A stretch of DNA of 64,000 nucleotides from Takakia lepidozioides (GCA_030704615.1 CM060731.1:10478001-10542000), one strand, 5' to 3'. Shown: positions 1 through 40,235, counted from the stretch's first letter. Notes: generated by a model from the sequence alone, not told the origin. Numbers and translations: made by a program.

Positions 1-1592
1 TGTCCTCCAAAATTTACTCGTAAACTTTGGATCGCGATCCGAGACAATATCCTTCGGGACTCCATGATGCTTTAAGACGTGGGCGAAGTAAAGTCGCCCT
101 GTCTCCTGCGCCGTTGCCGTCTCCTTGGTGGGGATGAAATGGCCCATTTACTGAACCTATCTAACCACCACCATGATTGCATCGAATCCTTTTGACAACG
201 GCATAGCAGTCATGAAATCCATCGAGACGCTTTCCCAAGTCCCCTTTGGAATCGGCAAGGGTTGTAACAGCCCCGCCCTTGCTTTTTGTACTCGCTCCGG
301 TTTTGTTGCATGTGGTGCATGTCTTGACATACTCCTCTGCCTCCTCCCTCAGTTTGGGCCAGAAATACTCTTTCTTCAGGAGTGCCGCAGTGCGCTTGGC
401 TCCGCTGTGGCCCGCAAGCGGGCTATCATGGCATTCTCTCAAGAGGCTGTCTCTGATCCCTCCCTTCGCCACGAGAGACGCTTTTGCTTATACCGGAGCA
501 GTCCATTTTGCAAGTGGAACTGCGATTTAACCCCCATCCTCAAGTCCTGCATCACAGACTTCGCCAGCTCATCCTTCCGGTAAGCCTTCCGGATCTTCCT
601 TTGGAGCGCCGTCTCGCCCTTGTACACCAACAAGAGCTGCTGCTTTCTACTTAAAGCATCGGCCACCACGTTGTTTCGTCCCGGTTTGTACTGGATATCC
701 ACGTCGAACACCGCCAAAGTATCTTGCCACCTAAGTTGTTTTGGGGACACTTGGGCTGCGTGGCAAAATACTTCACCGTGACATTGTCCGTGAACACCTT
801 CACTGGGTTGGAACAAACATAGTGGCGCCAAAGCTCAAGACAGTGCACCACCGCCCTTCATCTCTTTTTCGTGCGTCGGCCACCATCGCTCCACTTCATT
901 CAGTTTCTTACTTTCGTAAGCCACTGGACCGTTCATCATTGCATAAGTACACCCCCAATCGCGAAGTCCGACGCATATGTATGAATCTCAAATGGACGAT
1001 CGAACTCCGGGATTCTCAAGACTGGAGCTTCCGCCATCCGCTGCTTCATTCAGCAAAAAAGCTTGGCTTGGCACAAAATGTGTTCCATACCAGACTTTGG
1101 ATTACACAAAGGCCGACAGCGACCCCCGCGATCTTGGCGAAATTTCTCACATACTTCCGGTAATAGGAGCGAGTCCTAGGAAGGATCGCACTCCCGGGAC
1201 CGAAGTCGGAGGCCCCCAGTCCAAGATCGCCTACCTTTCTGTCATCCATTTTGATCCCATCCTGTGTAATCACATGCCCCAAGAACTCCACTTTCGTGAC
1301 CCCGAATTCGCATTTTGAAGCTTTGGCATACACCTTTCCTTCCCGCAACTTTTGGAACACCCTTTTGAGGTGCTCCAGGTGTTCCTCCTTTGTTTTCGAG
1401 TACACCAAGATGTCGTCGATGTACACGATCACAAAGTCATCCAACCACTCCTGAAAAAGGCTGTTCATCAGCGTGCTAAGGTCGCCGGTGCATTAGTGAG
1501 ACCCAAAAGGCATCACCAAAACTCATATGAACCATACCTTGTCCTGCACGCGGTCTTCTCCTCATCTCCTTCCGCCATCCGATTTGATGATA
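1..1592 (-). mobile_element. Ty3/Gypsy pol fragment (RT-RNaseH-integrase), sister copy interrupted by the next element
   Basis: ORFs with VYIDDILV (RT), LADALSRK (RNaseH end) and the HD..AGH..CxxC integrase Zn motif. Near-identical to ~4083-5676. Ends abruptly at the LTR start 1593. Confidence 0.93.
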
Positions 1593-3188
1593 TGTCGCGA
1601 CACCTCACTTCGGTAAATCCCCTCAGTCATAGTTACTCGCTTTGATGCGCGCGCCTGACTCCCAACCTGGCCGCCGGGCCAACTTGGAGCTTCGGCTGCT
1701 CACCGGGACATAACGGTCCCCTTTCGATTCCCTCTAAAACCCTCCACCTAATTGGGACTAGGAGAATTCCCTTTGGTAGATGGCAGTCCGGAACAGCTCC
1801 CCACTCTTTGGTCGCTTTCCGGCTCGCTCGCTTACTCACTAGTTTTTTGTCACCAACGGGCTTGCACCGTTCTCGGGGTTACTACTCCCTATATATACTT
1901 CTGTAGCTTTCCGCGGGGGTTTCACAACCAGCCATGCATTTTTATGGCGAACACCACGAAGACCCTCGATTCCGGTGGTGAGTCGCGTGAGTTTTGGGCC
2001 GCTCACCCCAGCCCCTATGGACCGTGATGAGTCCCAAGACTCCCCACGACTCCCACCACGAGGTCTCCGCCCCCATGGTGAGTCCTATGCCACCCCCACT
2101 AAGTCCCACTAAGCTACCACCACCCCTTGTGGAGCCACCCCCCGCAACCCGGTGTGCGGGGCTCCACCTAGTGAGCGCCTCCGCTTCCCTGAGTGCCTTG
2201 GGCACTCAAGGGTGCCTTAGCCCCCCATACCTATCGCTGCCGCTGTCCCCACCACAGGGGCAGCCCCTCATGTGTCCCGACCCCCTGCCCTCAAGGCAAA
2301 GGGCCGCGACACACACCCCTACCAACAGGGAGTCGATGTCCTCATCGACTTGTCCATTTTGGAGAAACGAACATCCAAGTTGTGGCGTCCCACATCAAGG
2401 AGTTTGTTTCTGTACCATTGCATCCCATGGCAAAGAACCAAACCCCACACTTGACTCTACTCTCCACTAGCTAGTTCGGCCGACTTCCTCTCAAGTCCCG
2501 GCCAGGGTGGAGCCTCTCCAGCTCCTCCCAGTGCACTCTTCTTGGCCTACTTCAAGGCCAAGGAACGATCCTCCCCGAGGATCCCTCGCCCTTTACTGCA
2601 ACAACATTGCTTCGATCGCTCATGATGCCGCTTTTGGCCATCACCTTTGAGCAAGAGTTCACCTGGAACCCTCTTTGACTAGGAAGATAACATTGAACCA
2701 ACCGTGCGCCCCAATCACTACAATTGGGTCCGCCTTGGAATGCTGGCCTGATGTACGGAACACGCCGAAGCCGCACTAACGACTTTGTCCCGAGGCTGCA
2801 CGATTATAGTACGTGAACGGAAGCACGTAGCTTCCTCCGCGTTAGCCCGCACTACAAGGCACCCCCTTGGTAGCGCAGTTATAGTACGCATACGCGCCAG
2901 GTGCGCACTAGCACGTGAACTCCCAAAGAAGGCGCAAGTTTCCTTGCCCCTTGGATGGAGTCACCCCGATTTCGGCACTGCGCAAACACACGATTAAACC
3001 CAATTTACCTCTCCACTTTTGTAAGCTAGCATGCATTCTACACACTAGCCAACCACACCATGCTTTCACCATTCCCAAACCAATAGGACGCACAATATTT
3101 GGACCCATTTCCTTATAACAAATTTTTGTACAAAACAAAGTTTTTGCAATCGGATTCCTGAGTCTATCTAAACCGGGCTAAGCATGCA
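1593..3188 (-). repeat. 3' LTR (~1.6 kb, TG...CA)
   Basis: Begins tgtcgcg and ends ...gcatgca. The first ~375 bp match 7858-8238. A polypurine tract abuts the 3188 end. Confidence 0.88.
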
Positions 3189-3209
3189 TTTCCTCCTCCG
3201 CCACGCTCC
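3189..3209 (-). promoter_or_regulatory. Polypurine tract
   Basis: Minus strand reads GGAGCGTGGCGGAGGAGGAAA immediately before the LTR TG. Confidence 0.75.
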
Positions 3210-3249
3210 AAGGTTGGGTCCCCATCAACGCTTTCTTTCGCTTTTTGAG

Positions 3250-6200
3250 ATCGCCCCTCGAAGCTGCAACCGCCTGGATGCGTTTCCCATTTCTGAGGCA
3301 CGCACCAAGATGCCTCCACATGATGAAGCCCTTCCATTTGACGAGATACTAACTCCGTTTCTCGGTTCTTGAACCTCCTCGACGTAAGATTTGCCTCCAC
3401 CTCGTACTCAGGTTCATTTTCATGATCCAACAGCATAGGTGGCGGACGCAACACTTGATGCCGATTCGGACGCGCTTCATCTTTGAAGTAAGGCTTCAAA
3501 AAGGGAGACATGGAATACTGGTGCACCTTGTGCTGTTTGCCGGCAGCTCAAATTCATACACATCCTCATTCATAACCTTCCAATGCGAAAGGGTCCGCAT
3601 ACGGAGGCACGAACTTCGGACTCACTTCCGGAGGTAGTCGGAATTCTTGATGTTCAACCCGAGACCTCTGTGCCTGCCTCAAACTTCACTTCCTCCGCTT
3701 CCGATTCGCCTGCCTTTCATACCGTTTCCTAGCTTGGCAATATTGTACTTTGCGAGCTTCAACAAACGCTCGCGTTCTTCCCGTACCGCCGCTACTGGCC
3801 GTGTTCCTCAACGTCCTGGGTGGCCCAACTTGTCGGCACCAGAGGTGCTTTTCCATAGACCAACACAAAGGGGAAACTCCCGTTGCGGAGTGTTCTGTGT
3901 TATTATAACAGAACTCGACCGCGTCTAAGTGTTCCATCCAGTCTGATTGGTCTGCCGACACGTAATTCCGCAAGAAATTGCTTCACTACGGAATTCACTC
4001 TTTCCGTTGGGCCGTCCGTCGTAGGTCGGAAGGCGGTGCTCATCTTCAGCCTCGTCCCCATCTTCTTCAAAGTGCCTCTCCAGAATTTACCTCGTAAACT
4101 TTGGATCGCGGCGGCGAGACAATATCCTTCGGGACTCCATGATGCTTTAAGACGTGGGCAAAGTAATGTCGCCCTGTCTCCTGCGCCGTTGCCGTCTCCT
4201 TGGTGGGGATGAAATGGCCCATTTTACTGAACCTATCTACCACCACCATGATTGCAACTCGAATCCTTTTGACAGCGGCATAGCAGTCATGAAATCCATC
4301 GAGACGCTTTCCCAAAGTCCCCTTTGGAATCGGCAAGGTTTTAACAGTAACACAGCCCCGCTTGCTTTTTGTACTCGCTCCGGTTTTGTTGGCATGTGGT
4401 GCATGTCTTGACATACTCCTCTGCCTCCTCCCTCAGTTTGGGCAGAAATACTCTTTCTTCAAGAGTGCCGCAGTGCGCTTGGCTCCACCATGGCCCGCAA
4501 GCGGGCTATCATGGCATTCTCTCAAGAGACTATCCCTGATCCCCCCTCCTTCGCACGTAGAGACGCTTTGCTTATACCGGAGCAGTCCATTTTGCAAGTG
4601 GAACTGCGATTTAACCCCCATCCTCAAGTCCTGCATCACAGACTTCGCCAGCTCATCCTTCCGGCAAGCCTTCCGATCTTCCTTTGAGTGCCGTCTCGCC
4701 CTGTACACCAACAAGAGCTGCTGCTTTCTACTTAAAGCATCGGCCACCACGTTGTTTCGTCCCGGTTTTACTGGATATCCACGTCGTCGAACACCGCCAA
4801 AGTATCTTGCCACTAGATTGTTTGGGGACAACTTGGGCTGCGTGGCAAAATACTTCACCGTGACATTGTCCGTGAACACCTTCACTGGGTTGGAACCAAC
4901 ATAGTGGCGCCAGAGCTCAAGCAATGCACCACCCCTCTTCATCTCTTTTCGTGCGTCGGCCACCGTCGCTCCACTTCATTCAGTTTCTTACTTTTGTAAG
5001 CCACTGGACGTCCATCTTGCATAAGTACACCCCCAATCGCAAAGTCCGATGCATATGTATGAATCTCAAACGACGATCGAACCTCCGGATTTCTCAAGAC
5101 TGGAGCTTCCGTCATCCGCTGCTTCAATTCAGCAAAAGCTTGGCCACAAAATGTGTTCCATACCCAGACTTTGGATTTACACAGAAGGTCCGACAGCGGC
5201 CCCCCCGCGATCTTGGCGAAATTTCTCACATACTTCCGGTAATAAGAGGCGAGTCCTAGGAGGATCGCACTCCGGGACCGAAGTCGGAGGCTCCCAGTCC
5301 AAGATCGCCCTCACCTTTCTGTCATCCATTTTGATCCCATCCTGTGTAATCACAATGCCCCAAGAACTCCACTTTTGTGACCCCAAATTCGCACTTTGAA
5401 GCTTTGGCATACAGCTTCCCCCTTTCGCATTTTGGAACACCCTTTTGAGGTGCTCCAGGTGCTCCTCCTTTGTTTTCGATTACACAAAGATGTCGTCGAT
5501 GTACACGATCACAAAGTCATCCAACCCACTCCTGGAAAAGGCTGTTCATCAGCGTGCTAAATGTCGCTGGTGCATTGGTGAGCCCAAAAGGCATCACCAG
5601 AACTCATATGAACCATACCTTGTCCTGCACGCGGTCTCTCCTCCTCATCTCCTTCGCCACCCGAATTTGGTGATAGCCGGAGCGCAAGTCGATCCGGCTG
5701 AAATACTTCGCTCGCTGCCAACCGATCGAGAGGTCGTCGATCCTTGGCAAAGGGTACCGGTTTTTTTATAGTCACCTTATTCAGAGCCCCCTGTAATCGA
5801 CACACATCCACAGCGTCCCATCCTTCTTGTCTGCAATAGCACCGGGGCTCCGTAAGGTGACTTACTCGGCTCGGCGGATGTACCCCTTTGACATTAGATC
5901 CTTGAGCTGAGTCTTCAGCTCGACCACTCTCTATGGCTCAACCGGTAGGGCGCCTTGGCAGCGGTTCCGATCCCGGTATCACCTCAATCTTGTGGTCAAC
6001 TCCTCTTCGCGGTGGCAAGCCGCTTGGTAAATCCTCCGGCATCACATCCTGGTATTTCTCCAAAATCCCCTTGATCCAATCTGGGCTCAACTCCCCATCG
6101 CCTTCTCCTTTCACTTCTCTAATGTAAAGCAAAAACTGGGACTTGTGTGCCTCCTCCACGGCCCACTCCTTTGCTGACAGAAGGTTTATTCGCCCTCCCA

Positions 6201-7802
6201 CGGATTTGGGCATTTCCGACACTCGTAAAACCTCGCCACCATTCCCACATGGCAGCGTGACTACTCTCTTGCGGCCATCTATGACCGCTCCGGATTTGCC
6301 CAAAAAGGTCATCCCCAAAATGAGATCCACTGCATCGATCTCGCAGATGGTGAAGTTCTCACGTCCCTCCCAACTCCCCAGTTGACGAGGAACATCAAAC
6401 GCCAACCTTGTCGCCAACTGTGGTTCTCCTTTGGCAGAACGCACCTCAATAGAGGCCCCCACGTCACTTGTCGGGAGTCCCAACTTTCGCGCCGCCGCCG
6501 GTGTCATGAAGGAGTGCGACGCTCCTGTGTCCACCAACAACGACACATTAGTTCCGGATATTATCCCATCCACGAACAATAACTGACTCCCTTTACGCAC
6601 GGCGCCAGTTTCCTGATACAACTCACAAAAATAGTCGCCTACCTTGCAAGTCCTGGCGACCACCGCTTCCACCAAGCGACTGATGGTATCTTCCGACAGC
6701 TCCGTGGTTGCTCGAGTCATGTTCAATTGTCGAGGTTTTGTGCACTTCTTGGCCATGTGCCCGGGCTCCCCGCAATTGAAACACACTCCATCAAAGGTCG
6801 CCTTCTGTCCGCCATAAGTTGCTCCACCCGCTTTTCCTTTCGAAGCACCGGGTGCCGCCTTGACGTGTGAAGGCCCTCCCTTCGATTTCCACGTGCCATT
6901 GTCGCCGCGTGGCCTATCCCACTTCTTTTCCGGTCGGAAGGAGTCACCTTCCTGACGGGTCTTCTTGTGGTTCAGCTCCGTACGGCCTTGTCTCTCACCC
7001 CTAGGGACATCCGAGAAACATTCAGCCCTCTCAATTGCCTCGTTCAAAGTCTTGGGTGGCTTCTCCTCCAACTTCCGCCTGGCCCATGGGGCCAGTCCCG
7101 CCACAAAGTTGAAGACCATTTCTGGTTCTGCCATGTCCGCGACTTCGAGCAACAGCACATTGAAAGCCTGGACATACCCCCGAATATCATCTGTTTGCTT
7201 CAAATTCCTCATCTTGTCCCGGGCAAGCCAGGATGCGTTGAGGGGCACAACTGTCTCTTCATCAATTCCTTGAACCCACTCCAGTTCAAGGTTTCCGGGC
7301 TTGGGCCTCGGTCGTGAAGGCGTTTCTGCCACCATTGTTGAGCATAGCCCCTCAAATAGGTGGGAGCCACTTCCACCCGATCCTCGTCACTCAACTTGGC
7401 CGCCCGGAAGTACTGCTCTAGCTCCAGGAGCCAGGTGTTGAGTGCCTTCTGATTTCGAACACCCTCGAAGGTGCCGGGTTCCTTAGGCTTCACCTTAAAC
7501 TTTGCCTTAGTGGAAGTGGCATTAGCCGCCTTCAACACGTCTTTCAACGTCCCGCCAAACTGCGCCAACAACCCTTCCCAAAAGGCTACCGGCATGGGAG
7601 GCATCTCTTGGTTTGTCGGAGCTCTCAAGGATTCCTCGGGCTCCGACTCCTCGGATTCCTCCCGCTCTTGAGTGGCCTCGTTTTCGGAAACATTCATCGC
7701 TTCCTCAAACGGCCGCCTCGGTGACACGTCGCCCCCATCGGGCTCACCAGGATCATCATCTTTTGGGCCGTTCCACTTTCGCTTTGGCTTGCCCGACCCC
7801 AT
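3250..7802 (-). pseudogene. gag-pol polyprotein (gag, CCHC, AP, RT, RNaseH, IN, chromodomain), many frameshifts
   Basis: CFNCGEPGHMAKKC; LVDTGAS; YIDD at ~5493-5505; YASDFAIGGVL; VVDRFSKMGHF; YEVEA.L..R chromodomain at ~3300-3410. Confidence 0.93.
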
Positions 7803-7843
7803 GATGAGGCCAATCCCAAGGACGATCGCGTACTAAACTCTAA

Positions 7844-7855
7844 GCTCTGATACCA
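7844..7855 (-). promoter_or_regulatory. Primer binding site (tRNA-iMet)
   Basis: Minus strand TGGTATCAGAGC, 2 bp inside the LTR end. Confidence 0.92.
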
Positions 7856-7857
7856 AG

Positions 7858-8238
7858 TGTCGCGCACCTCACTTCGGTAAGCTCCCCTTCAAGTCATAGT
7901 TACTCGCTTTGATGCGTGCGCCTGACTCCCAACCTGGCCGCCGGGCCAACTTGGAGCTTCGGCTCCTCACCGGGGCATAACGGTCCCCCCTTTTGTTCAC
8001 CCAAAGAACCCTCCACCGATTTGGAACCAGCGGGAATTCCCTTTGGTAGTTGGCAGTCCGGAACAGCTCCCCACTCTTTGGTCGCTTTCCGGCTCGCTCG
8101 CTTACTCACTAGTTTTGGTCACCAACGGGCTTGCACCGTTCTCGGGGTTACTACTCCCTATATATACTTCTGTAGCTGTCCGCGGGGGTTTCACAACCAG
8201 CCATGCCATTTTATGGCGAACCACCACGAAGACCCTCG
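7858..8238 (-). repeat. 5' LTR, truncated
   Basis: Matches 1593-1968 up to gaagaccctcg, then joins directly to a ParB-like exon. Confidence 0.88.
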
Positions 8239-11200
8239 GGAAGATGTTTCACGTTTGGGATGGGAACCACCGGTTGCTTGTATGGATGGCTGTTATTGGG
8301 AGGCTGCACTCATAGGAGGAAGAGTGGCATTACTCTGTTCGATCGATGGTGCTGGATTGTGAGGGGAACATGATGGGTCTTCTGACGGCAATGAATGATA
8401 TGAACATGTTGGTTTCTCATTCTACATGTTCCACTTATAGTTCCGTGGTTCTTTGATTAAAGTCCTTGAATTTCATTCTGACTTTCAGATATCATTCTGC
8501 AAAGGAACGAAGACATCGCATGTCAAAACGAGTCTGGTTCACACACTGTATAGGATACAAAGGATCGGGCAGATGCCCTTGACCAACTTCAAGACCATCA
8601 TTTCAGCAGAGACGTACAAGAAGTGCAAAAGCTCCAAGACATCGGAAACGTGGTACTCGTTGACACGTGAGGCTTTCATGGAGTACATGTATACGGTGAG
8701 ATACATCTTCCTTCATCTGCCTTTTCCATATTCCTGCTTCCACATGTTTGTTTCTGTTTGTTTCCCTCGCCCTTGGGTTGATGCAACTCTCGTGCATTCC
8801 CTTGCAGCAAGACATTGCAGATGCAGGGGAGCGTGGCAAACTGGAATACTACAGGTCAACCCCTGAGGAGAGAAGGACAGCAAAGGGGGTTGAGAGTCAC
8901 ATCCAAAAAGAGATGACCGCTACAAGAAGGACTATAATGAGTGCTTTTGTGAAGCAGTTGAGAATTGCCGACCCATCATTCGGATCGCAGTTTCTCCTGG
9001 AGATAAAAAACCATTATAACAAGCCAGGCAAGCCAAAGATGGCCCAGGAGAAGTTACACAAGTTGTCTACCGCCGTTGTGTCTTCAGAACAGAAGGTGAA
9101 GTGGCTACAGATATGGAACTCCGATCCCACAGTTAGGGATACCCACATGTTCCCCAGGCCGGAGAAAGAGAAGAAGACCCAGCATGTCATTCCTGTCAGT
9201 GACAATGTACTGGACACATGGCTTCACAAGGCCACTTACTGGAGCCAGGTGTGATGTCCTTTCCTGTGTCACTTTCTTTTCTCTTTTCCTGTCCTTCTCT
9301 TTCCATTGCCTCTGACATTCGCTGTGATTTTTTTTGGGTTCATTCTTGCATTTGAATTGTTTTGCAGTTGGAAGAAAGGGCACGGTCGGTTCTGCATACT
9401 CAGCTGGCTGACTATGGCATCGACATCACCGAAGGTCTCCTTCGAAGCATACATGAGGAAAAGGAGAGCCACAGTGTGGCACTCTTGTTTCTTTAGAGAG
9501 TTCAGCAAGGAGGGTGGCATCAGTCGAACACATGACCTTGACCAGCAAGAAAAATGAGAGGAAGCCTGGAAACGATGCCTTTACATGTGCACACCCTGGG
9601 CCGTTCAGGCTACTTAGTGTGCTGTGGTTGCAATGTACTGTGACGCATACAGTTTAAGGGGGTCTTCCTGGTGTGATGGAAAAGCTGAGATACAATAATT
9701 GCATTGCATAATGAGGCTGTCTCTGTTCCTGCAGGTACATAAAGTTTGTTCTCTTGGAAGAGAATTGCTTGGACAAACATCCAGATTTCGTGGACCTCTG
9801 GCTTGTCCCTGCTGGCAATCAGACCATGTTTACTACTGGGATCTTGCATGACTGGGGCCCAAACCATCTTTCTTCTTGTGGTTGGTATTTGGATTGCCCT
9901 CCTTCTGAGACCCCAGCTCCGGAGGTGTCTTTGAGGAGAGAGAATGAGCAAATTGCAGCCATTGCCGCAGCAACCGACCTCGACATTCATGAACGAAATT
10001 TGAGGACTCTTGCAGAGAAGGAGCCTCCCGCTCAGGATACCCCGGGTAGAGGTAGAAAGGCAAAGGGAAAAGATGTTGCTGGTGTTGTGGGGAAAGGAAG
10101 GGGTAGAGGGAAGGTGGCACAAGGGCAGGGAAGTGTTGCAGATATTGGCCCAGTGGTGCATGTCCAACAGACTCCACCGCATGGTAGGGGATCCGTGAGA
10201 AAGAACAAGGGGGTGGTTGATCCCAAGGACCCATACCATGCAGTGGAACATCCGACGAGGGTCATTCGCCCTACCAGGTTGGAGATGGCCAACGTCGGAT
10301 TCCTTGCCATGATGGAGTCCAAGAAATCTGATTACAAGGGCGAGCCATCACCAGTGTGGGAGAGGATTGTAGAGCTCCTCGGCACGGTGCGTGTTCTCTT
10401 TTGCTTCTTCTCTGCAGTGGGCATGGATCGTTTCAATCCTCTTGAGTATTCCATTGTAATTTTGTTTGCAGGCTAAAATGACCAAATCCTGGGTGAACGG
10501 GAAGGAGAAGCAATATGCAGCCGAACTCATAATCTTGGACATCCCTGATGGGTTGGCAGTCCCGGATGTCCCTCCATCAGGTGCTTGTCCGGGTTGGAAT
10601 GCTTTTGATGAGCGCTACTGGCGGTGGGTTTTCTCCTTTTGCAATTTTTTCCTGTCCGATGCAGGTGTTTTGGTGCTCATACAGTCCGCCGACGTTCGCT
10701 GTCGCCGTGCACTTGCCAGCTATTTGAAAGCCTCGGGCATGAGAGTCCTGAAGACATGGAATTGTGTGAACAGCATGTACCTTACGAAGGGGGATCGTCC
10801 GGGAGAGATGGTAAATTTGCCTTCTTCTTCCTCTTCTTGGTGGTTCTCGGATGGAGTTGTGTAGGTCGCTCGAACTCAAATGTAGGGGCCTGATTTTTGA
10901 AGCTTCTTAGTTCCTTCTGGATGTGTTGTTCGCAGACTCGTTTGTTTGAAGCTGTTTGTCTCGTCCGAGTGCATCCACCAACGACTCCGGCCGGCATTTC
11001 GGAGTTCGCCATCGCTCATGGGGGCAAGTTCATAGACGACAGGACAGATCCTCCCACGGATGACATGCACCAAACTACGTCGACAGCAACGTCTGCTTGC
11101 GAAGGGGGAATGGGGTTCCTTGGAGAGGGGCGAGGGAGAGGAGCCCGGCTTTCATTCAAACGATTGTGGAGTGCTGCACCTACACAGACGCCAGAGTTCT

Positions 11201-11913
11201 GGATTTGTCAATGGGCACAGGTTCGTCTCTTCAACATTCGGATTTCATGAGGTTTGATTGAGCTTGCACTTTCAGTACTTCCCACCGTTTCATATGTGTC
11301 TTCAATGTCTGCTTCCTTCATTCTATTCCACTGCAGGTGCTTCGTACCACGCTTGCAAGGCCAGTGCCCGACATCTCTTTGGGATTGAAGGGGATGCTGA
11401 GATTTACAAGAACCTCCTGATGGGTTTGGGTGGACACACTTCTCAAGTCCTTCCGAAGCCCCGTCCCGCTGATATTGATACAGGGGAGACTTCCGACAAG
11501 GAGTTGGACTCCGACTTTGCCTGTGAGTAAGTTCAACCTGTAGATGCTTGCATTGTTGTTTCAATATCAAGAATCACTCTTCTTGAGGCAAAGTTCACAT
11601 GGCAGACATCCTCTTCGTTGGACTTGTGTATTGCATATTGTGTTCTGAATGGGTTTTTGTCGACATGTGCAGGAGTCCACGTGCTTCCACTTGCCCTCCA
11701 GGGCTATCACACCTATTTGGACTTCTTTCCAGTCCTCCTCGGTCTTGCGTGCTACCTGTCTATGCGGAGGCACTCGCAACAAGCATGACCGTTCATGGCA
11801 CTCAGAGTCCACCCATCGACGGCCGTGGTAGAAGACGTGGTGTTGGGGCCAGAATCTTTGTGGATGACATAGCACAGGAGGTCGAGACTGATTCTGATGA
11901 CTGTGACACTTGA
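8239..11913 (+). pseudogene. Multi-exon ParB/Srx-like domain + beta-class N6-adenine/N4-cytosine DNA methyltransferase-like gene (5' truncated)
   Basis: GKMFHVWDGNHRLLVW at 8239-8286. ELIILDIPDG (motif IV-like, ~10523-10552) followed by W..F...LSDAGVLVLI. Then PWRGARERSPAFIQTIVECCTYTDARVLDLSMGTG / GT-AG intron 11221-11336 / ASYHACKASARHLFGIEGD, which parallels the HPTQKP..LI...T..GD.VLDPFMGSG.T..A....R..IGIE consensus. Exon boundaries are approximate. Confidence 0.8.
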
Positions 11914-12620
11914 TATGAAGTTTTCTTTTGGTTTTATTTGGGGCCAAATTTGAAATGGGATGGTTGTGTGTCTTTGTTGTCCTGTTTGCAATGTGTGCGT
12001 GGAATGCACATTAATGGGAACAAACTATTGTTGGAGATGGGGGTTGCATGGACTGTCCGGATTGTTCCTTCAATCTATTTAGTGTTTTCTGGACCTCACA
12101 GACTTGAGTGCATTGCAAAAACAAACAAACGACTTTGGTTCGTGTACAACATTCTCGCATCATTTGATCGTTGGTCTCCAAACCATTCCTGCTAGAAGAA
12201 TGGTTGGTGAATCCATCACGGTGAAGTCCACCTCATCAAAGAGCTGTGAGGTATTCTCAAATCTAATGAGCATCCATGATGCTCCCGCACATACCTGGCA
12301 TGTTCGCAAGGGTGGTGAGTAAGAAAAGATTTCGCAGGGTTCCGCTTTAGATCATGTCAGTGTGCACCTCCTCACGACGTACCCACATAAACTTGTGAGG
12401 GCTTGGTATGTTGATAACGTCGGCATGGATGCAATGGATACAATGGATGTAACATATCCACTCTGCATTCCCGGGAAATGGCTGATCAACCCGCAGAAAT
12501 AGGTGACACCCGCGGAAATAGGCCCTGTATGTATGCTGACGTGGCGTGAGCCTGTGCTGGGCTCACGATTTCCTGGGCTCACATGCTCACGCCTCCAGGC
12601 TCACGGAATAGCACCCCCCC
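8239..12620 (+). mobile_element. MULE-like element 0 (ParB-MTase arm, left part missing)
   Basis: Ends in gctcacggaatagcaccccccc (12599-12620), homologous to the ends at 19486 and 29425. Subterminal GCTCAC/GTGAGC repeats at 12545-12605. Confidence 0.72.
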
Positions 12621-12904
12621 GGAGAGCCACGCCCTTCAAGCGGCATAAGTCCCAGCCAAAATGGAAAAAGATCTCAGTTTTTTGGGGTACATGCCTCGAA
12701 TAGAAATTAATCCAAGATTAGCATCAGATTTAGAGTACGTATCGAGGAAGCCATGTGTCGCCAGCCCGAATAAAAACGGACGGCGGTAGACATTTAATGC
12801 CCAACTACGCAATTAAATGTCGGATGAAGCCCTCCCTGTCGGATGAAATATGACGCAACTCGGCCCAGAATTTCCAACGTAGAGGTAATTCGAAGCGCAG
12901 TAGA

Positions 12905-13625
12905 ATAGAATTCCGGCGCCGGATTTCCATCCTGCAGGTAATTCGGAGCGCGGATGGATGGAAATCCAGCGCCGGATTTCCATCCGTCAGGTACGGCGGC
13001 GCGCAAAATTTCCGTCATGCAGGTAATTCGGAGAGCAGCAGGATGGAAATTCAGCGCCGAATTTCCATCCTGCCAGGTAGGGCGTCTCGCGAAATTTCCG
13101 TGACGCAGGTAATTCGGAGCCGGATGGATGGAAATCCGGCGCCGGATTTCCATCCTGCCAGGAAGGGCGGCGCGCGAAATTTCCGCCACGCAGGTAATTC
13201 GGAGCCGGATGGATGGAAATCCGGCGCCGGATTTCCATCCGCCAGGTTGGTCGGAGAGCGGATGGATGGAAATTCGGCGCCGGATTTCCATCCTGCCAGG
13301 AAGGGCGGCGCGCGAAATTCCCGCCACGCAGGTAATTCGGAGCGGATGGATGGAAGTCCGGCGCTCGATTTCCATCGCCAGGTTGGTCGGAGAGCGGATG
13401 GATGGAAATTCGGCGCCGAATTTCCATCTGGCAAGTAGGGCGGCGCGCAAAATTTCCGTCATGCAGGTAATTCGGAGCGGATCAGGATGGAAATTCGGTG
13501 CCGAATTTCCATCCTGCAAGTAATTCGAAGCCTGGATGGATGGAAATTCGGCGCCGAATTTCCATCCAGCAGGTAACTCGGATCGTTGGCGGATGGAAAT
13601 TCGGCGCCGAATTTCCATTCGCCAG
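12905..13625. repeat. Palindrome array A (ATGGAAATTCGGCGCCGAATTTCCAT-type), 53/85-bp units
   Basis: GGCGCC-like cores at 12915, 12968, 13053, 13138, 13223, 13276, 13360, 13412, 13497, 13550, 13603. Confidence 0.95.
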
Positions 13626-13787
13626 GTAAGTCGAAGCGCCGAATTACCTTCCTGCAGGTAATTCTGAGCGTGGACTTGTTTTTCGGAGAAAAACAAACTA
13701 AACTGTTAGTTTTGTGGCTGAAGTTCACTTTTAGACACGTTTTTCATGGAATCCTTGACTGCTAGAGGGAAATCCGAGCGGCCTCGA

Positions 13788-14840
13788 ACGGAAATTCGGC
13801 GCCGTTTTTCCATCCTGGGAGGTTTTTATATCGTCCAGTTTTGGGCCTCACCACCCGACCGGACTTCTTTTGAGGGGTCCCGGATGGAAATTTGGCGGCG
13901 AATTTCCATCCGGGGGATGGTCTCTGTCGGACAGGTGCCGGCCTCTACGCCCGAGGCGACTTCGTCCGGGCGTCCCTTGTTGGATATTCGGTGCCGAATT
14001 TCCGTCCGGGGGTTGAAATGTGACGGCCAGGTGCCGGCCTCTCCCCCCTCCCCGACTGCATCCAGACTGCCCCGCACGGAAATTCGGCGCCGTTTTTTCC
14101 ATCCTGGGAGGTTTTTATATCGTCCAGTTTTGGGCCTCACCACCCGACCGGACTTCCTTTGAGGGGGCCCGGATGGAAATTCGGCGCCGAATTTCCATCC
14201 GGGGGATGGTCTTTGTCGGATAGGTGCCGGCCTCTCCGCCCGAGGCAACTTCGTCCGGGCGTCCCCTGTTGGATATTCGGTGCCGAATTTCCGTCCGGGG
14301 GTTGAAATGTGACGGCCAGGTGCCGGCCTCTCCCCCCTCCCCGACTGCATCCGAACGGCCCCGGATGGAAATTCGGCGCCGATTTCCCATCTGGGGAGGT
14401 TTTTATGTCGGCCAGTTTTCGGCCTGCCCCCCCGACATGACTTCGTTTGGGGGGGCCCGGATGGAAATTCGGCGCCGAATCTCCATCCAGGGGATGCTCT
14501 CTGTCGAACACGCGCCGGCCTCTACGCCCGAGGCGACTTCATCCAGGCTTCCCCTGTTTGGATATTCGGTGCCGAATTTCCGTCCGGGGGTTGTAATGTG
14601 AGCGCCAGGTGGCGGCCTTTCCCCCGAGCCGACTGCATCCGAACGGCCTCGGATGGAAATTATGTCAGCCAGTTTTCGGCCTGACCCCCCGACACGACTT
14701 CCTTTGGGGGGATCCGAATGGAAATTCGGCGCTGAATTTCCATCCGGGGGTTGTTCTCTGTCGGACAGGTTCCAGCCTCTCTACCCGAGGCGACTTCATA
14801 CGTGCGGCCCCTGCTGGATATTCGGTGCCGAATTTTCATC
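13788..14840. repeat. Palindrome array B, 96-bp units in a ~289-bp higher-order repeat
   Basis: Cores at 13798, 13894, 13990, 14086, 14183, 14279, 14375, 14471, 14568, 14728, 14824. Spacer sequences recur every third unit. Confidence 0.95.
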
Positions 14841-15142
14841 CGGGGGTAGTAATGTGACGGCACGGTGCCGGCTTCTCCCCTTCAGCCGACATCATCCGGA
14901 CGGCCCCCCACTTTCTGACTGCATACCGTTTGCAGTTATTGCGCAAAGACCAGGGGCCGCATTCCTGAGACAAGGTTCATTAACACTCTGACTGTGGATT
15001 TTTGAGATAGTTGGCTCCTTGGATTTGGATCAGGCTTTGTCGCTCGGACAAATCGGCACCGCATTCCTTCCCATCGCTGCATCCCCCTTCTACCAGGGAG
15101 CTTGCCCCACGCCATTCTGGGAGTCTTGTGTGCACATCTCAC

Positions 15143-18100
15143 ATGGCAGAAAACCCGAGCGCTACAGTGTACTGCCCTCCTCACGAGCATAGAGCTTCAT
15201 TTCCATGCAGAGGGGACATCTGCCGGGTGATGGAGAAATATCTGTGCGTTCGATACCACCTGAAACCGGGGTCGGTTTTTTTGGAGGAGGAAAGGAAGGA
15301 CTCAAACGGCGTTGTTGTCGAGAGTATTGTTGTGCTCCACGACGATTTCGGCGATGGCAGGGAATGGCGAGTTCCACCATCGGACAATGTCATATACAGG
15401 GCTGTTGGGGACTTCATTTGCCCGCCAAATGCACCTTCTATCCTGGCGCCTTCCACGAAACAATCCGCGAATCAGAGAGTGGCTACCTCAAAGAGAGAAG
15501 TCCGCAACGAAGTAAATCCAGAGCCGAACCCATCCATGAAGACGAGCGAGAACCGGGTTGTTCACAACCTGTCCGACTCAGACGAGGTCATGGAAGTTCC
15601 GAGGTCGTCCTGGAGATCAGGCAAGTCCTCAATGGACGTCAGTGGACGAGGGAGTCATATTCCCAGCACGAGCACCGCAGTTCGATCTATTCTTGAAATT
15701 CTGCGAGGGCTTCACATGGAGGGACATCGCTCGGAGCTGGCCGGGCTGGACTACAACAAGTTTGCAATTAAATCGGTTACATGCCTTCCCGCAGACGTCG
15801 ACGGTAATATCTTCTTTGAGTTCCCTCCTCGGACGGACTACTCAAGGGCGTCCGGAATGTTGACAGATATGGATAGAAAACATGATGGTCATCCTTGGTG
15901 CGTCACCAAAACCACCAGCATGAAGATGCTCGATGGTGTGCGGGTGCGCTACGTTGTTTGTGCGGGCGCGTTGCGGTGTTTCTCCCCAACTTGCTTCCAT
16001 TTTAAATCCAGAGGTCACAGGAACGAGACCGATTGGACAGGCACAGCTCATCAACCATTTCGTGCTCAGGAGAAGGTTCCGAACTCCACATTTAAGTGTG
16101 CGCATTGCAAAGAACCACCACACTGCATGTCTATTTGTAATGCCAAGCAGTTCTATGTGTTGCACTGTTTCCCTGACCTCACCCGAGCTTACATACACGT
16201 TGGTTCCCATTGTCACAAATTGGCAAGGGGGAACTCGCGGGAGGCTGCCCACGAGGCAGAGCAGCTCGTTCAGGAGGAGGTTAAGTTGAGACCGGGTACC
16301 AAACCCAAACAGATACAGCTCCAAGCCGCCCATAAGATGGCCTTGGCTTGAATTATGTCGGAAGACGGCTCCGATAGAGTTCCTCTCAATGAGAAGGAAA
16401 TGGAGGCATTGCTGGAGTCGGTGTCCCACGTATGTTCACCGAATGTGCGAAACCACATTGTCTCATGCAAACAGAAAATTGGGCGTGGCTCGGATATGCA
16501 CTCCATTCTGGAGGTGAAGCGACGATGTGGATATGACTACATTCATGGAAGTAGGTTTCCAGGACAAGGGAGTGAGGCAGATCGTTGTTTCGTATTCAAA
16601 ATGTCCACGTGTGGACCTGGCAGCAGCGTCGAACTGGTCGACAGGATGACGAGTGGGGACTTGTCAAACAGTTGGGTCATGTTCGACCATATCAAGCGAA
16701 TTACAAATCACCAGTGGGTGACAATGGGTGCACATGTCTACGACACCCACTGCAGGATGCTAATGACAATTGCTATTTGTGAGATGAAAGGAGAGGACAC
16801 ACAATCGGAGATGCTTCTTTGGCAGGGAATAAACGAACAGATGGCCAAGGCGGGATTGCCCCCTCCCAATTTCCGTGGTTTCATGGCGGACAACGCACAA
16901 GCAAATTGGGCTGCCATCCGAAGGGTGTACGGGCAAGACCCCAATGTTCCCATGGAAGGCAATGAGAGATCTTGTGGGTTCCATTTTCTGTAGAGCCTTT
17001 CGCAGTACACAACCAGGCTCGTGGCGCCATATTTCAGAGAGGAGCACCGTTCCATGTGTCTTGCGTGGAAGCGCGCTCCCACCTTGGATGATGCAGAGAC
17101 ACAGTTTGCATGTATATGGGCTTGGTGGACATCGTCAGGTGCTGTAAGGAAATCAGACGAGGGAGCAATGGTCAGTTGGCTAGCATGGTGACATTATCGT
17201 TTCCTCCAGTTCGGCGACTATATGCGGGAGGTGAGTTGCACGAATTCGCGTCCCGTTGAATATTATTCTTGGCATTATTTGTAACTTGCTTGTAACCTCA
17301 ACATGTGCTTGTGCAGGAAATGTGTCTCGACTCCGACACCGACATGCCCACGACAAACATGGCCAAATCAGTGCATTCTTCCTGGCGTGCCTCCTCTGCT
17401 GCGCATCTGGTGGACATCCTCACTGCCACAACGGAGGACATTGTGAAGTCAATTATGCAGCAATGCAGGTACAACGAGTTCTTGAAATGGAAACAGTGGG
17501 GCTTGGGGCTGGACAGGCAGGAAATGCTGATGCGGACTGCCTCCAGATCGAAGAATCCTCAAAAGTGGGCAGCGGCCTTGCGAGAGGGCCTTCGGGACAC
17601 GCCATTCCTTCGAAGAGGCCAACATTCGGAAGGAGATGTTCATACCCGTCCAGTGAGACGAAGACTTGACGAGGCACCTGGCGGGGAAGAGGATTCATGG
17701 CGAGCTGACAAGAATATTCGCACGCTCCCTCGTGGTCCCGTGATGTTGCCCGAGGAGGTCTTGTCGAGCACCACAAGTCCTGCACGTTCAAGATCGTCAT
17801 CTCCTTTGAGCACAGGGCACGTGCCCGAGGAACATAACGAGCCATCTGTAGTAACGCAGTACAACATACCCATTGTGGAGACAAGAGTGTCGGAGTCACA
17901 GTGGAGAATTGTAAGGACATTGCCGGCATTTTGAGGGAAGTGTTGCGCCATTCGGGTGGGTACGAGAGCACGCTGTGGTGAGATGATTCGGAGGAACCCA
18001 CACGGTGCTGTACCTGCACCTTGTTTCAGCGGCAGATTTTTGACTCCCACATTTGCTCATGCCACAACGCAGACGTTTTGATTCTGTAGGCACGACATAA

Positions 18101-18690
18101 TGACCTATGTATTTGGCAAGCCCAAGTACGGGATTCAGGGAATGCCGGAGCCTCCGGGCGTCTGGCCTGTTGCACCGGGTTGCAGCCTCTCTCAGAATGA
18201 GGCGGATGCTCTATCTGCAGCAGGATTTTGAATGGTGCAACGCACAGATGTCCCGGCCCACGCATTTCCAGTTCCTCAGACCCAGCCATTGCAGACTGCT
18301 CGGTCCAGTAGAGACGGATTGGACAATTCTGCACATCCCATAATGCGATTCGGAAGAGTGAAGAGACGACACCCTCCCAACAAGTTGAATGAGACTCGGA
18401 TTGCCAATGCTCTTGGGATGGCTTGCACTATTCAGAGCTCCGTGGACGTACCTCCACCCGGCCTTGGGCGTGTTTATCGGACGATTGAAGTGGAGCCGAC
18501 TTGCAATTGTACGGACTTCTCGTTGATGGAAGCAAAGAAGGGTTCAAAGTATTATCCGTGCAAGCATCTGTATTACATTTACCTGAAGAGGTTGAGGATG
18601 AACGTGACTATTGATGACTTTATTCATGCACCGGCGTTGAGCGTGAATGAGCTGCACAAACTCCTCCTTAGGGATTCCAGAAATCATTGA
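15143..18690 (+). pseudogene. Mutator-like transposase with N-terminal GCM/WRKY-like Zn domain and C-terminal SWIM finger; intron 17231-17316; premature stops
   Basis: W..T...CAGALRC...C...CxxC...C...HVGSHCH; WVMFDH (D1); FMADNAQANW..RRVY (D2); CGFHF; TTNMA(K)SVH (E region, here K); CNC..F...PCKH SWIM. In-frame stops at 16349, 16991, ~17189, 17932 and ~18079. Confidence 0.88.
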
Positions 18691-19242: not shown

Positions 19243-19663
19243 TGCACATGTCGCTGGGAATTGGCATGAGCGGAAGACGAAATATCATGAGCACAACTCT
19301 CAAAACTACAATTTCCCCTTCAAGGTGCCGAATAATATATTTGTTTTTTCTGACACATTCCATTAAATTAATGTTTTATAATGTTTTTTATTTTCGAAAT
19401 TTGTATTTCTGCTCATGAAAACCGATTGTCTTGCTACTCCGCTCATGCCGCTCATGCCGCTCATGCTCATGAAATAGCTAACCTCCTCTCTGTTACCCTG
19501 CCATGGAAAAAAAAAAAAAAAAAACAACATGAAAATATGATACAAAAACAACCAAATTTCGACACAGCAATCCAATTTCCAGTTCATAGAGTGCATGACA
19601 GTCAAGAACATTGTCTATTTCGGCGCCGCAATAGGCAGTACACAAGGATGTAGTTGTATACTT

Positions 19664-20545
19664 ACAGATTTATATCCGCCATGGCACCCTTCAGCAGTCC
19701 TCTGTCCCTCACGTCCACCTTCACAACAATGCAGTCCACCATGTAATGCCAATTGATATCTTGCGGATGCATTTCAGCAATGTACTCTGTCCAGGCAAGC
19801 ATCCTGTGGTTCCCGTCCCAAACGAAGAACATCTTCCCTGCCATGTGTGCGAATGTGGGATTAGTCTTCAGAGAGGCTTCAAACTCGGCATTTACAGTGT
19901 GCCAGTGGGGGCTCCAATTCTGAAGCTCGACCTCTGCAGTGGGGCCCCTTGTGACACCGTGGTCATTCTCAATGGAAACGTAGAATACTGCCGACCCCCG
20001 TCTGTACCCCTCTCTGAAGTTGTGCTTCAGTCAATCGATGTCCCCTGGCAGTGCTTGTCTTACAACTGGAAGGCTAACCATGCGACACAAAGGAACTTTG
20101 AGGTTCTCCGGATACACCATGGAGCCCAAAACGCGGCCTATGTTGCTATGAGTCTCTACCAGGAACCTGTTTGCTGCTATGTTCATGTCTCGTGCGCTCA
20201 TGAGTATACCTGCCATTAGTTTCTTACTTCTATCACCTCTCTCACTTCCCTCACCCCTCTCACCAGCCTGTCTACTGTCCTGGAGGTTTTGCTCCTCCGC
20301 AAGCTCCAGCAGGTTTTGATCGTCGTCAAGTCGCACCACGTTGTCGTCATCTGCTTCTGTCAGCTCAATGGGCCGCCCTTCTCCAGATCCGAGTCTCCAG
20401 CGGCCTCCACCGCATCCGTGTTTTCTGAAACTGCCTGCAAACCCAATATCTCCGCTTCCAGTCTCCCAAGTGGTTGTACTGGCGAAGCCATAGGCTCTTT
20501 CTGCTTCCTCGGCTTCCGGACTCTAGGTGGGCTTTTCTGAGGCAA
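19664..20545 (-). pseudogene. ParB/Srx-like domain gene, 5' exon(s) (paralog of the gene at 8239)
   Basis: Read through a CGA>TGA stop at 20031-33: VPLCRMVSLPVVRQALPGDID*LKHNFREGYRRGSAVFYVS...GKMFFVWDGNHRMLAW...AMADIN, then a GTAAGT donor at the same position as the GT at 8408. Further upstream exons probably extend to ~20930. Confidence 0.82.
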
Positions 20546-21184
20546 TTTCTGAGGTGTTGAATGAGGAGTTGTCTACCTCGATGCACTTCCACCTTGCGAG
20601 CGCAGCACCCGGGCAGGAGTATCCAAAAGTGACTGTGTTGGCTCGCCCCCATGTGATCCCTCTCCAGCTCCCATGTCAAACAAACAGGAAAACATGACAC
20701 ACTGCACGCAAAAAAAAAGGTATAAAAGGAATAGTGCGTATGGAGTGCTTCACATCCGCGAAGCATGAATCTCTCACTGGTGGACGATCCAAGTCTCCGG
20801 ATAACGAGGTCTGCATTTCTTGCATGAGACGGAGCTTAAGACGTGTCGTCGGTGGCTTCCCAAAATCCCGCGTCCTCCTTCTCTGCGCCGGAATCGCCTG
20901 ACCTTCTATAAACTCTATGCTATCACTATGTTGCATAAGGAGAGGAAACGCAGAAGAATGTCACTGCAGAAGGGCAAGGAGCGAGAGAGCGAAGCGGTGG
21001 AACATGCAACCACTGTGCACGAGCAGATGCGTAAGCAGCCACGTCTCCCGAAGCGTTGCCACCGTCCACCACTTTCTGCTGTATGGGTATGAAGAGATTG
21101 CGACCCTTGACACGTTCGCACGGATGAAGTCGGCTGGAATACGACGCGTGCCTGTTCAAGCCACCAGTAGAAGACGCTTTATCC

Positions 21185-22610
21185 CAATTGCGGCGCCGAA
21201 ATACCGTTCCGTTCACCGGATGCTGTTCCCGGACCAGCCGGCATTGAATGAACTATCCACACATCATGAAACCCAACCGCCATGAAATTCCCCTGCCTAC
21301 CGACATTCAACAGTCAGGTCATCAGCGGACGGATGAATTTCGGCGCCGCAATTCATCGCTTCCCCAGTCCTCATCCGTCATGAGCAAACCTGTCAGTCGG
21401 ATATCGGAGCCGGAATTAATTCCGGGACAGTGGAGACGGCTGCACTTGGGCACATTTCATCCATATTTCGACGCCGAAATTCATTAAGAATATCTCCGTC
21501 CGCGCGGAGACGAGGTGAAATCATCCATATTTCGGCGCCGAAATACATCCAGCGCGAAGACTAAATCGGCACCATGCTACGCTTTGCCGCCATCATTGCC
21601 CCTCACGGTTGCTGTCCATGCCTGTTGGACTTGCCATGTATGGACTGTTTAGTATATTTTCGGCGCCGAAATTATACTTTATGTGCGGCAACGTCCTGTA
21701 CGAAAAATGACCACTTAATGGATACTGTCAGTTTCAAATGAAAACAACGGCTAAAATGCAATTAATTTTCCCCCAACATGAAAAAATATCCCCTTTCGTC
21801 ATTGGATAACGGCCTTTTGAAAAACATAAGGGGTTGAATGTGCCGATTTCTCCATTTAATGCAGAATATTCGTGTTATCTTTGTCTGAATGGGTTATTTC
21901 AAACAAATTTCGGAACCTTACATCATCCAGAAGCAAGAAGTAAGTGTCGGGTTCGGACGAATTTCGGCGCCGAAATTCATCCGTCGCATAGAAAATGTAT
22001 TATTAGAGTTACCCTTTGCGGACAGTAAGGATGAATTTCGGCGCCGAAATTCATTGCTCGCGAAGAAAAAAGAAAATTTGAAGGGAGGACTTTGGATGAA
22101 TTTCGGCGCCGAAATTCATCTGTCGCAAGGAAAAATAAAAATGAAGGGAGGACTTCAGATGAATTTTGGCGCCGAAATTCATCCAACGTCGTCCCTCCAA
22201 CAATTTTTTTCCCATGCGAACGATGAATTTCGGCGCTGAAATTTATCTCTACTGTCGATTCAGAATTACTGTCATTCGGATGTCGGCACCGAAATCCGGA
22301 CACGTGGTGAAGCATGACTGTAATCACGAACACATTCATCAGTATTTCGGCGCCGAAATTCATCCCTTATGTGCAGAGACAATTTCATGAAGAACATGTT
22401 CATCTGAATTTCGGCACCGAAATCCATCTGTCGGGTGCTTGCTCAGTTTCATGAGGTGAACAAATTTCGATTTCTGTCGCCAGAATTCATTCCGTGGTTC
22501 CAAATCTGTTGCATGACAGAGATATTCATCCAGATTTCGGTGCCGAAATTCATGAGAAGGCCTGATTTATTGTAGCCCAACTGGTGGTACATCGCAATTC
22601 AGGCACCCAA
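21185..22610. repeat. Palindrome array D (GATGAATTTCGGCGCCGAAATTCATC), between the divergent genes
   Basis: Cores at 21342, 21406, 21470, 21534, 21662, 21912, 21966, 22040, 22105, 22168, 22232, 22285, 22349, 22413, 22476, 22539, 22602. Confidence 0.93.
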
Positions 22611-22800
22611 TATCCAATGTGAACTTGCTGTGGTCATCCGTATTTGTAACGTACGTTACACACCTTCATCCATACGTGCACTGATCACCCATCCTGTTGG
22701 ATACAGAATCCTCCATAAAATAATTGTGGTATTATGTAGGACACACTCTTCTCATTGCAGGACTTCGCTGCGGAGCGTACCGAGAGTTGCAGTCTTCAAC

Positions 22801-27958: not shown

Positions 27959-28510
27959 CTATGGTCCCCTCGCCCAAGAAGAAGGAACTCGAACTGGCCT
28001 CTCAAGGACCTCCTGAGTGACTAGGTGCCGATATTTGAACAAAATGTCAGCGGTTTCTGTCGCCCGGTTGAAACTAACGAGGATGTCGTGTTTATCGATA
28101 GTGCCCCCTTTGTAGAAGGACATTTTCACAATGGGCCCTGTGTTCCTCTCCTCCTCCTCCTCATAACTGAAGAGAATGTCCCCATTTTCCGAGCCAGTCC
28201 GTCCACGCGTGAAGTTTTCACCTATGCACTCATCATACGTCCACTCGCAACAGTTCCAGCGATACAGCAACGCTGTGCGTGATCTGTTCGGCTCCCACTC
28301 AAGCGGAAAGTCCAGGTCCATGATGCGCAGGAACCACCTGCTCCTCAGCCGGGGTCCAGGAGAATCGTGCAATCCTGGAAGAAACTCCATTGCTCTCAGC
28401 TGGACAAGTCGAGGATCGTCCCTGTAAACATCTAGGAAGACAATGATGTCGTCTGCTTTCGGGACAATGACTCCCGTCTGGCGTCGATAGATGTGATTCG
28501 GGCACAACAT
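27959..28510 (-). CDS. Hypothetical protein (~183 aa), cargo ORF of element 2
   Basis: Uninterrupted ORF of globular composition between the transposase and the subterminal array; no recognisable family. Confidence 0.45.
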   Translation of the reverse strand: MLCPNHIYRRQTGVIVPKADDIIVFLDVYRDDPRLVQLRAMEFLPGLHDSPGPRLRSRWFLRIMDLDFPLEWEPNRSRTALLYRWNCCEWTYDECIGENFTRGRTGSENGDILFSYEEEEERNTGPIVKMSFYKGGTIDKHDILVSFNRATETADILFKYRHLVTQEVLERPVRVPSSWARGP

Positions 28511-28749
28511 GGCCTCACGACACAACAAGAACACAGAGCAGGGAGGAGATGGGCACAGCAGAGAAGAGTGAAGAGCAAAATGAGAGCGAGGCCGGCGGAA
28601 GAGGGATATATCATTGTTGCACTGCCAATGTCGTATGCAGCAGAACTTCTATTTCCTCCGACATGTGTGCTTTTATTAGACAAATCCGCACCAGTTTCAG
28701 GACAGTTTGCAAAACTCCCTCACCGTAAGGCGGATATTTGCTCTCCGGA

Positions 28750-29157: not shown

Positions 29158-29524
29158 TGCCCAGAATTCAGTTTTTCTATGACCTGGCCTGGCGGTCCAT
29201 GAGCTTGGGCTCCAAGTCATGAGCGGACACTGGTACTTATGAGCGGAGTGCTTCCAGCATGAGCGCGGAAATCTTCGAAAACCTTCTCTTCTTATACTAC
29301 TTTCGATTATTTTATAGTTTTGGGCCCGAAAAAAATCTGTCGAAATTCCAAGTGTGTTACTTGGCGGCTCATGGGTGAGCCATGCCCGCTCATGAGCTCA
29401 TGAGCTCATGGAATAGCAACCCCCCTTGCTGCTCTGGGGATTGCCTAAGGGTCAAGGTCTCGTGCAAGTAAGCTGACAAGCAGTTCTGATCCTCATAATG
29501 CAAGACTTCAGTGAGTTCCACGGA

Positions 29525-40129: not shown

Positions 40130-40235
40130 GGCTGGAATCTCCGGATGATTTTTGGTAGGTTTCTAGGGGCAATTTACTGCAGCTGGGTGCCCAAAATTGG
40201 TAAAAAGTCAAAAAAGGGCTTGGGAACTTTAAGGG
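40130..40235 (-). mobile_element. Inverted end fragment of the piggyBac-like element at 60188
   Basis: Reverse complement of ~60188-60292, ending ...aaggg followed by TTAA. Confidence 0.85.

Follow-up and report, generated by a model that had tools for sequence, protein, structure and literature searches.

To our knowledge, most of what is known of bacterial-type amino-methyltransferases in plants comes from Marchantia sperm. The Takakia lepidozioides locus described here raises the question of what such a domain may do when its catalytic motif IV reads DIPD in place of DPPY. The domain occurs in a 64,000-nt stretch of the genome (hereafter, the window), in which the domain-coding methyltransferase (MTase) exons span 10472-11526 on the plus strand. 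The original prediction proposed three readings of the missing aromatic residue, namely decay private to this copy, a change of chemistry common to the whole family, and a catalytically dead DNA-shielding protein.

MTase exon 1 (10472-10810, +; 339 nt, with AG and GT borders) encodes motif IV (LIILDIPDG), the conserved Trp-Asn pair and motifs V-VII, and the GAT codon of DIPD is located at 10547-10549. It is followed by an intron (10811-10935, +) and by exon 2 (10936-11220, +), which carries WRGARER at the position of motif X (HPxxK), contains a 1-nt frameshift at about 11072 that was not among the features of the original prediction, and ends within motif I (DLSMGT; VLDLSMGT-G). The spliceosomal intron claimed to interrupt this SAM-binding motif was confirmed as a 116-nt GT-AG intron of phase 1 (11221-11336, +; VLDLSMGT/G), which has an identical position and phase in the relative L003 and is missing in the X11 and X12 contigs. 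Exon 3 (11337-11526, +) reads GASYHACKASARHLFGIEGD and supplies a helix and motif II (FGIEGD), yielding ...HLFGIEGD; an acidic, low-complexity last exon is predicted at 11673-11913 (+) from sequence alone.

The upstream part of this accessory gene comprises a remnant of the GNHR ('ParB-like') exon (8238-8411, +; 55% identity to L003, with a stop at 8313-8315), exon 2 (8490-8695, +; 33% to L003, with a GT donor at 8696), exon 3 (8808-9248, +; 32% to L003, with GT-AG borders, its L003 counterpart being split by a further intron), exon 4 (9368-9609, +; with a stop and frameshift near 9421 and an uncertain 3' border) and exon 5 (9735-10386, +), where a brief conserved start is followed by a low-complexity linker. 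The GKMFHVWDGNHR exon at 8238 is the 5'-most exon present. A truncated Ty3/gypsy-type LTR (7857-8238, -), which aligns to an LTR copy at 1592-1968, is fused directly to it, and in the window the gene lacks its 5' portion, cut off at this junction; the X7, X11 and X12 contigs have different letters from the window upstream of 8238-8241. At the junction itself (8232-8241) the letters CTCG are shared with those preceding the GNHR exon in an X7 contig, which suggests a microhomology deletion. Positions 1-8238 of the window contain Ty3/gypsy-type elements in minus orientation, which are nested and decayed and include two LTR copies.

The window copy is a pseudogene, with one stop, two frameshifts and a 5' end cut by the LTR element. 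These lesions are private with respect to the other copies compared, since one extra base at about 11072 was present in 4/4 runs, five extra bases follow 9421 in X6 and X7, and X6 has C at 8313 and is free of the stop. Around motif IV, the region 10485-10615 (131 bp) was represented by 275 contigs in X1, seven in X5, five in X6 and none in X8 (organism B); the summed depth of X1 at the GAT codon was about 230,000, which is not a copy number. Four sites within this region vary at more than 5%, none of them inside 10547-10549, where X1, X5 and X6 showed no variant at 5% or above, a T at 10547 included. Copies of 80% or greater similarity therefore mostly read DIPD. No RNA run was listed as containing the window copy, which says nothing about its expression.

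The assignment of the domain to the beta-class amino-MTases was borne out by profile match, by HHalign and by the motif register. A profile of the family exons (25-row alignment) matched H. pylori M1.HpyAVI (5hek/5hfj) with E 5.5e-5 across some 160 residues. When the family was compared by HHalign with a control set of 42 beta-class enzymes from prokaryotes and viruses, the match reached 97.7% (E 1.5e-12, 207 columns), versus 2.8% for the reversed control, and the alignment placed DIPD on DPPY, WRG-RE on HPTQK, DLSMGT on DPFAGS and GIE on GIE. In this alignment the hydrophobic core is better conserved than the active site, and the order IV...X-I-II is collinear with that of the prokaryotic enzymes, in agreement with the IV...I order originally noticed. 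With the MTase part of the relative P0027, all rows listed among 30 named Atlas hits were PF01555, the top match having a score of 0.94 and 173 shared features. An alignment-based structure model, whose input included two retained introns, reached pLDDT 49.9 and pTM 0.29; Foldseek placed MTases in its top rows at weak values (E 0.04-0.1; best VIA Z 6.7), and a single-sequence model reached pLDDT 44. Searches with single exons retrieved no significant match from Pfam (best family piece, E 0.049), from PDB sequences and the protein collection or, by tblastn, from phage and plasmid sequences, and the same was true of a metagenome scan with exon M1 alone. A viral match (L001) was discarded, being a reverse frame of an unrelated ORF.

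To place the window copy among its relatives, metagenomes were searched with the GNHR exon, which gave 72 loci in 48 groups, many of them on short contigs; one or more MTase exons follow downstream in 23 of the 72, exon 1 is seen in 15 and motif IV in 12. Six more protein clusters (P series) were contributed by a profile search. The family alignment has 14 rows, several of which are decayed copies, and 13 of them cover motif IV; open frames are found in L003 and in the P0018 and P0024 clusters. Motif IV reads DIPE in four rows, EVPS in two, and DIPD, DIFE, DCPV, DCPM, EVLS, EVFS and IVPR in one each. The fourth position is aromatic in 0/13 family rows versus 42/42 controls (Tyr in 41, Phe in one), a set for which YhdJ was the seed and which may be biased towards DPPY, and the catalytic pattern (D/S/N)-x-P-(Y/F/W) occurs in no family row. 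The second position varies in the controls too (DIPY in four, DLPY in four, DAPY in three and DVPY in one of 42); by this comparison 'DI' for 'DP' is ordinary and the sole unusual point of the motif is the missing aromatic, the loss of which is family-wide as judged from the aligned rows. Among the three readings first offered, private decay thus falls and family-wide loss stands (0/13), and this loss favors a dead protein over a Marchantia-like 4mC writer.

Motif X begins with HP in 38/42 controls versus 0/9 family rows, and the motif I variants of the family (DLSMGT, DWNAST, DVNAGV and DVIVGT) are partly inside the control range. The motif IV Asp/Glu, the motif II acid and, in most rows, the second Pro are retained, as is the Trp-Asn pair after motif IV in 11/13 rows. 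The SPPY motif of the eukaryotic 4mC writers DN4MT1 and N4CMT is absent from the family. When motif IV was masked, the best-scoring controls were still the phage enzymes with DIPY or DVPY; in a quick tree, subject to a long-branch warning, the seven family rows group together (99) and sit beside these five enzymes (96). An old ancestor of D[I/V]PY type may be regarded as a lead, not a result.

The MTase exons had also been predicted to be spliced to a 'ParB' exon. The link between them stood, on the evidence of L003 and the X11 and X12 contigs; the ParB label was not confirmed beyond the level of a motif. L003 is an intact gene of nine exons and eight GT-AG introns (984 codons, no internal stop, DIPE), with its introns at the window positions, in phase 0 on both sides of MTase exon 1 and in phase 1 in motif I. 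X11 and X12, which come from two studies and are RNA by guess, each have one contig (2253 nt and 2005 nt, respectively, with a similarity of about 83%) that spans 8241-8311 and, after 482 intervening letters, 10934-11222; of the 30 letters after 11222, 26 match the start of exon 3, as counted by eye. These contigs consequently represent a paralog that has no motif I intron and has the GNHR exon on the same contig, which points to splicing in this paralog, a processed DNA copy being the alternative.

Several variant gene forms were encountered. MTase exon 2 lies soon after the early exons, and exon 1 went undetected, in L037, L038, L051-L054, L065 and L068; the 482-letter gap of X11 and X12 is far below what the full gene would need and fits this list of shortened forms. 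The subfamily P0006 and P0024-P0027 has no intron separating MTase exon 1 from exon 2 but apparently keeps the one in motif I. The two MTase introns of P0018 contain no stop and maintain the frame, giving a read-through ORF, and the exon-5 homolog is inverted inside the gene in L027, L028, L044 and L056.

Purifying selection acts on the MTase domain. Exon 1 gave a dN/dS of about 0.19-0.22 when L059 was compared with L071/L070, and values of about 0.5 for the pairs L047/L027 and L059/L061; saturation affected most of the deeper pairs. Pairs of GNHR exons gave about 0.03-0.3. In the read-through proteins P0018 and P0010 the MTase exons are identical at 159/165 positions versus 38/54 for the in-frame introns (p 6e-7), and a similar excess of exon over intron identity was found in three further read-through pairs. 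These figures indicate that the fold is being kept.

The N-terminal domain of the protein carries a DGNHR motif. Searches with the GNHR exon for ParB/Srx homology found no match in Pfam or PDB; there was one PHROG ParB-like match (E 0.38), and HHalign against a YbdM-type set of 68 sequences gave 0.15%, with the motif alone aligned. No relative was detected with the GNHR profile in viral and prokaryotic genome contigs by pattern scans, which are insensitive. The ParB label would thus apply at the motif level only.

The surroundings of the gene point to a mobile element. A decayed MULE-like transposase with a C-terminal SWIM finger is located at 15011-18690 (+) and a second, related one at 22576-27270 (+). 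The SWIM match of the former has E 0.0013 and 18.7 bits versus a cut-off of 19.6, and its DNA is 67% identical to the copy at 24921-26712. The Pfam MULE domain was not matched in the window transposases; the one at 15011-18690 contains what we take to be the D..D..CxxH..E (DDE/CxxH) pattern. A DDE transposase with a C-terminal SWIM finger would agree with the architecture given for MULEs in the available text of PMC1702500. A second GNHR exon (19665-20186, -) is divergent from the transposase at 22576-27270 and is cut near the terminus at 19490.

Three right-facing element termini were recognized, at 12545-12625 (+; GCTCAC subterminal repeats and then GAATAGC, at 12599), 19440-19490 (+; at 19465) and 29375-29430 (+; at 29404). 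They are alike in having GCTCAYG repeats and RAATAGC (blastn E 0.001), the short terminus pattern with two mismatches having 0.82 matches expected by chance. Each transposase ends close to one terminus (19465 and 29404), and that at 12599 is about 700 bp 3' of the MTase gene. The minus strand of the window has no left-facing terminus within two mismatches and the window no target-site duplication (8-11 bp in MULEs), so the placement of the gene inside the element relies on one end; the other loci gave no convincing instance of the terminal motif. The simplest reading would be nested elements, each bounded by two termini that enclose gene, arrays and transposase in this order, with both genes pointing outward. 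This divergent layout of gene and transposase is repeated by the second GNHR exon and by L018/L063, and the same transposase family adjoins the GNHR exon in the window, L018, L063, L057 and L069. Among the loci longer than 5 kb the transposase is present in 4/32, probably two distinct places; one of five seeds of a transposase profile was out of frame, and its matches agree with plain tblastn. The family is likely carried by DNA transposons.

Tandem arrays containing the palindrome TTCGGCGCCGAA extend over 12850-14930 (unstranded; 14 matches; repeat families D5, D8, D10 and D11) and, in the interval that separates the second GNHR gene from its transposase, over 21180-22550 (unstranded; 13 matches). 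With up to one mismatch the window has 28 matches versus 0.11 expected, all in or beside the elements. Six copies lie upstream of the gene in L015, the one fetched locus that has the degenerate palindrome as an array. Between the second transposase and the terminus there is an ORF of 229 codons (27962-28648, -) with no Pfam match, possibly a further accessory gene.

On balance, these observations make it probable, by sequence comparison, that the domain belongs to a dead accessory protein which acts on its own MULE-like transposon element. An enzyme from a prokaryote or phage, probably with a D[I/V]PY motif, would have been captured long ago, and catalysis would have been lost before the family spread. 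The domain would end a spliced protein of about 1,000 residues that is predicted to transfer no methyl group; SAM binding may persist in view of the retained acid of motif II, and dimerisation is predicted as in beta-class enzymes. The protein is predicted to bind the CpG-rich palindromes TTCGGCGCCGAA of the element, and the bound arrays would stay open for transcription or transposition. This anti-silencing step, conceived by analogy with VANC, is proposed tentatively and at clearly less than even chances. Since motif IV drifts freely yet the core is kept, a pseudo-enzyme is the simplest reading. Models of related enzymes have the Tyr of motif IV stacking on the flipped target base (PMC10406627, in part), and the change of SPPY to APPA, in which Ser and Tyr are both mutated, abolishes activity (PMC8885841, in part). 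Against a dead accessory protein stand the scarcity of the transposase (4/32 loci) and of the palindrome array (one fetched locus, L015), the poor predicted structure (pLDDT 49.9), the palindromes, which could instead be transposase sites, and the kept Asp/Glu, Pro and near-invariant Trp-Asn, which could form a variant active site. A bolder proposal, which we consider doubtful, is that a phage-type MTase captured by plant MULE-like transposons had its active site rebuilt on Trp-Asn and would keep host 5mC off the elements' own CpG palindromes, acting as a shield that flips bases or as a non-canonical writer of 4mC/6mA; a bacterial modification enzyme would then have been turned to anti-silencing.

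Other explanations appear unlikely to different degrees. The dead domain could be a module for dimerisation or for binding proteins (the transposase or host chromatin factors), with no DNA binding of its own. Beta-class enzymes work as dimers (PMC10406627, in part), binding was proposed as the mode of action of inactive DIRS1 MTase domains (PMC4738411, in part) and the core is conserved above the active site; however, the positive WRG-RE[KR] segment, strongly conserved at what would be the nucleic acid or cofactor face, speaks against this option, which is unlikely overall. It is quite unlikely that the protein is an active MTase of altered design, in which Trp replaces Tyr and 6mA or 4mC on the element, or methylation of RNA or protein, blocks silencing by host 5mC. 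Intact members do retain the motif IV Asp and Pro and the motif II acid, Trp-Asn is present in 11/13 rows, DLSMGT resembles the control motif I variants DSCMGV and DFTMGS, and selection is purifying; but positions 1-4 vary freely (DIPE, DIPD, DIFE, DCPV, EVPS, EVFS, EVLS), unlike a catalytic motif, the HP of motif X is gone, and intact members have DWNAST or DVNAGV as motif I. It is improbable that this is a host gene family sometimes flanked or captured by transposons in a Pack-MULE-like manner and not a standing accessory gene: 28/32 long loci have no transposase in the available DNA, but the family has numerous divergent copies, most of them decayed (72 loci, 48 groups; in one run, 275 contigs across 131 bp), and the divergent layout recurs in the window and L018/L063. 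Private tat>gat decay of an ordinary DIPY writer is scarcely credible, even with the window copy broken at other sites and the best-scoring controls reading DIPY or DVPY, given that no T is seen at 10547 at 5% depth or above and that the aromatic is missing in 13/13 family rows, intact genes included.

The dead accessory protein can be compared with several known systems. Prokaryotic beta-class amino-MTases (PF01555; M1.HpyAVI, M.MboIIA, CcrM, E. coli YhdJ) share with the family the motif order IV...X-I-II and profile homology, whereas the family is without the motif IV aromatic and HPxxK, has a drifting motif I, contains spliceosomal introns and sits behind about 740 residues of other domains. 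MpDN4MT1a/b of Marchantia are likewise bacterial-type amino-MTases in a land plant, aligned with beta-class 4mC enzymes in the available part of bioRxiv 10.1101/2021.02.12.428880, and are described as having no extra domains in that of PMC8885841. According to the bioRxiv text they have TSPPY, are active and form a tandem pair of host genes expressed in sperm, whereas the present family is multi-copy and has no SPPY. The bdelloid N4CMT also combines a beta-class domain captured from bacteria with introns, domain fusion and a link to transposons, but it has SPPY and is an active, host-encoded silencer, while the family is likely dead and element-encoded (PMC8885841; PMC10406627; both in part). 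Membership in the DN4MT1/N4CMT group was rejected because the SPPY motif is missing.

Eroded amino-MTases kept by selection are also represented by the DIRS1 N6A-MTase, METTL14/Kar4 and the second domain of fungal clade 4 (PMC4738411, accessible text). The DIRS1 domain rides on a mobile element, as the family appears to do, but it is a group-2 (PCIF1-derived) domain within a retroelement polyprotein, whereas ours is beta-class and encoded by a separate gene beside a DNA transposase; entries for Physcomitrella and Selaginella in the same text are MT-A70, AlkB or other domains. VANC of the VANDAL MULEs is likewise an accessory gene of MULE type associated with element-internal tandem-repeat arrays (PMC5735166, in part); no homology to it is shown or expected, and an anti-silencing role of the family would be an extrapolation. 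The word 'methyltransferase' does not occur in the available portion of PMC6446971, nor 'methyltransferase' or 'ParB' in those of PMC13547354 and bioRxiv 2026.08.24.746577. No description of the family was found in the full-text literature searched, which leaves subscription journals largely uncovered; supplements of the bioRxiv papers might list plant homologs.

The family thus appears as a separate, old, multi-copy one, apparently travelling with transposons and kept by selection after loss of the catalytic aromatic, and it advises caution in calling such genes 4mC/6mA writers by homology alone. If the protein does shield or mark the CpG arrays of the element, it would be a counter-silencing factor of a novel kind for transposons, and might serve as a tool for epigenome editing.

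Elsewhere in the window, several dispersed repeat families occur at 29576-33709, an ORF of 235 codons with no Pfam match at 34513-35217 (-) and an 89-nt triple tandem at 60727-60993. The segments 40129-40234 and 60188-60293, 20 kb apart, form an inverted repeat of 106 nt (96%). Two further genes, which mark the host as a land plant, are presumably a polyubiquitin gene of nine 228-nt units (45843-47903) and a PPR gene with a terminal DYW (56585-59264).
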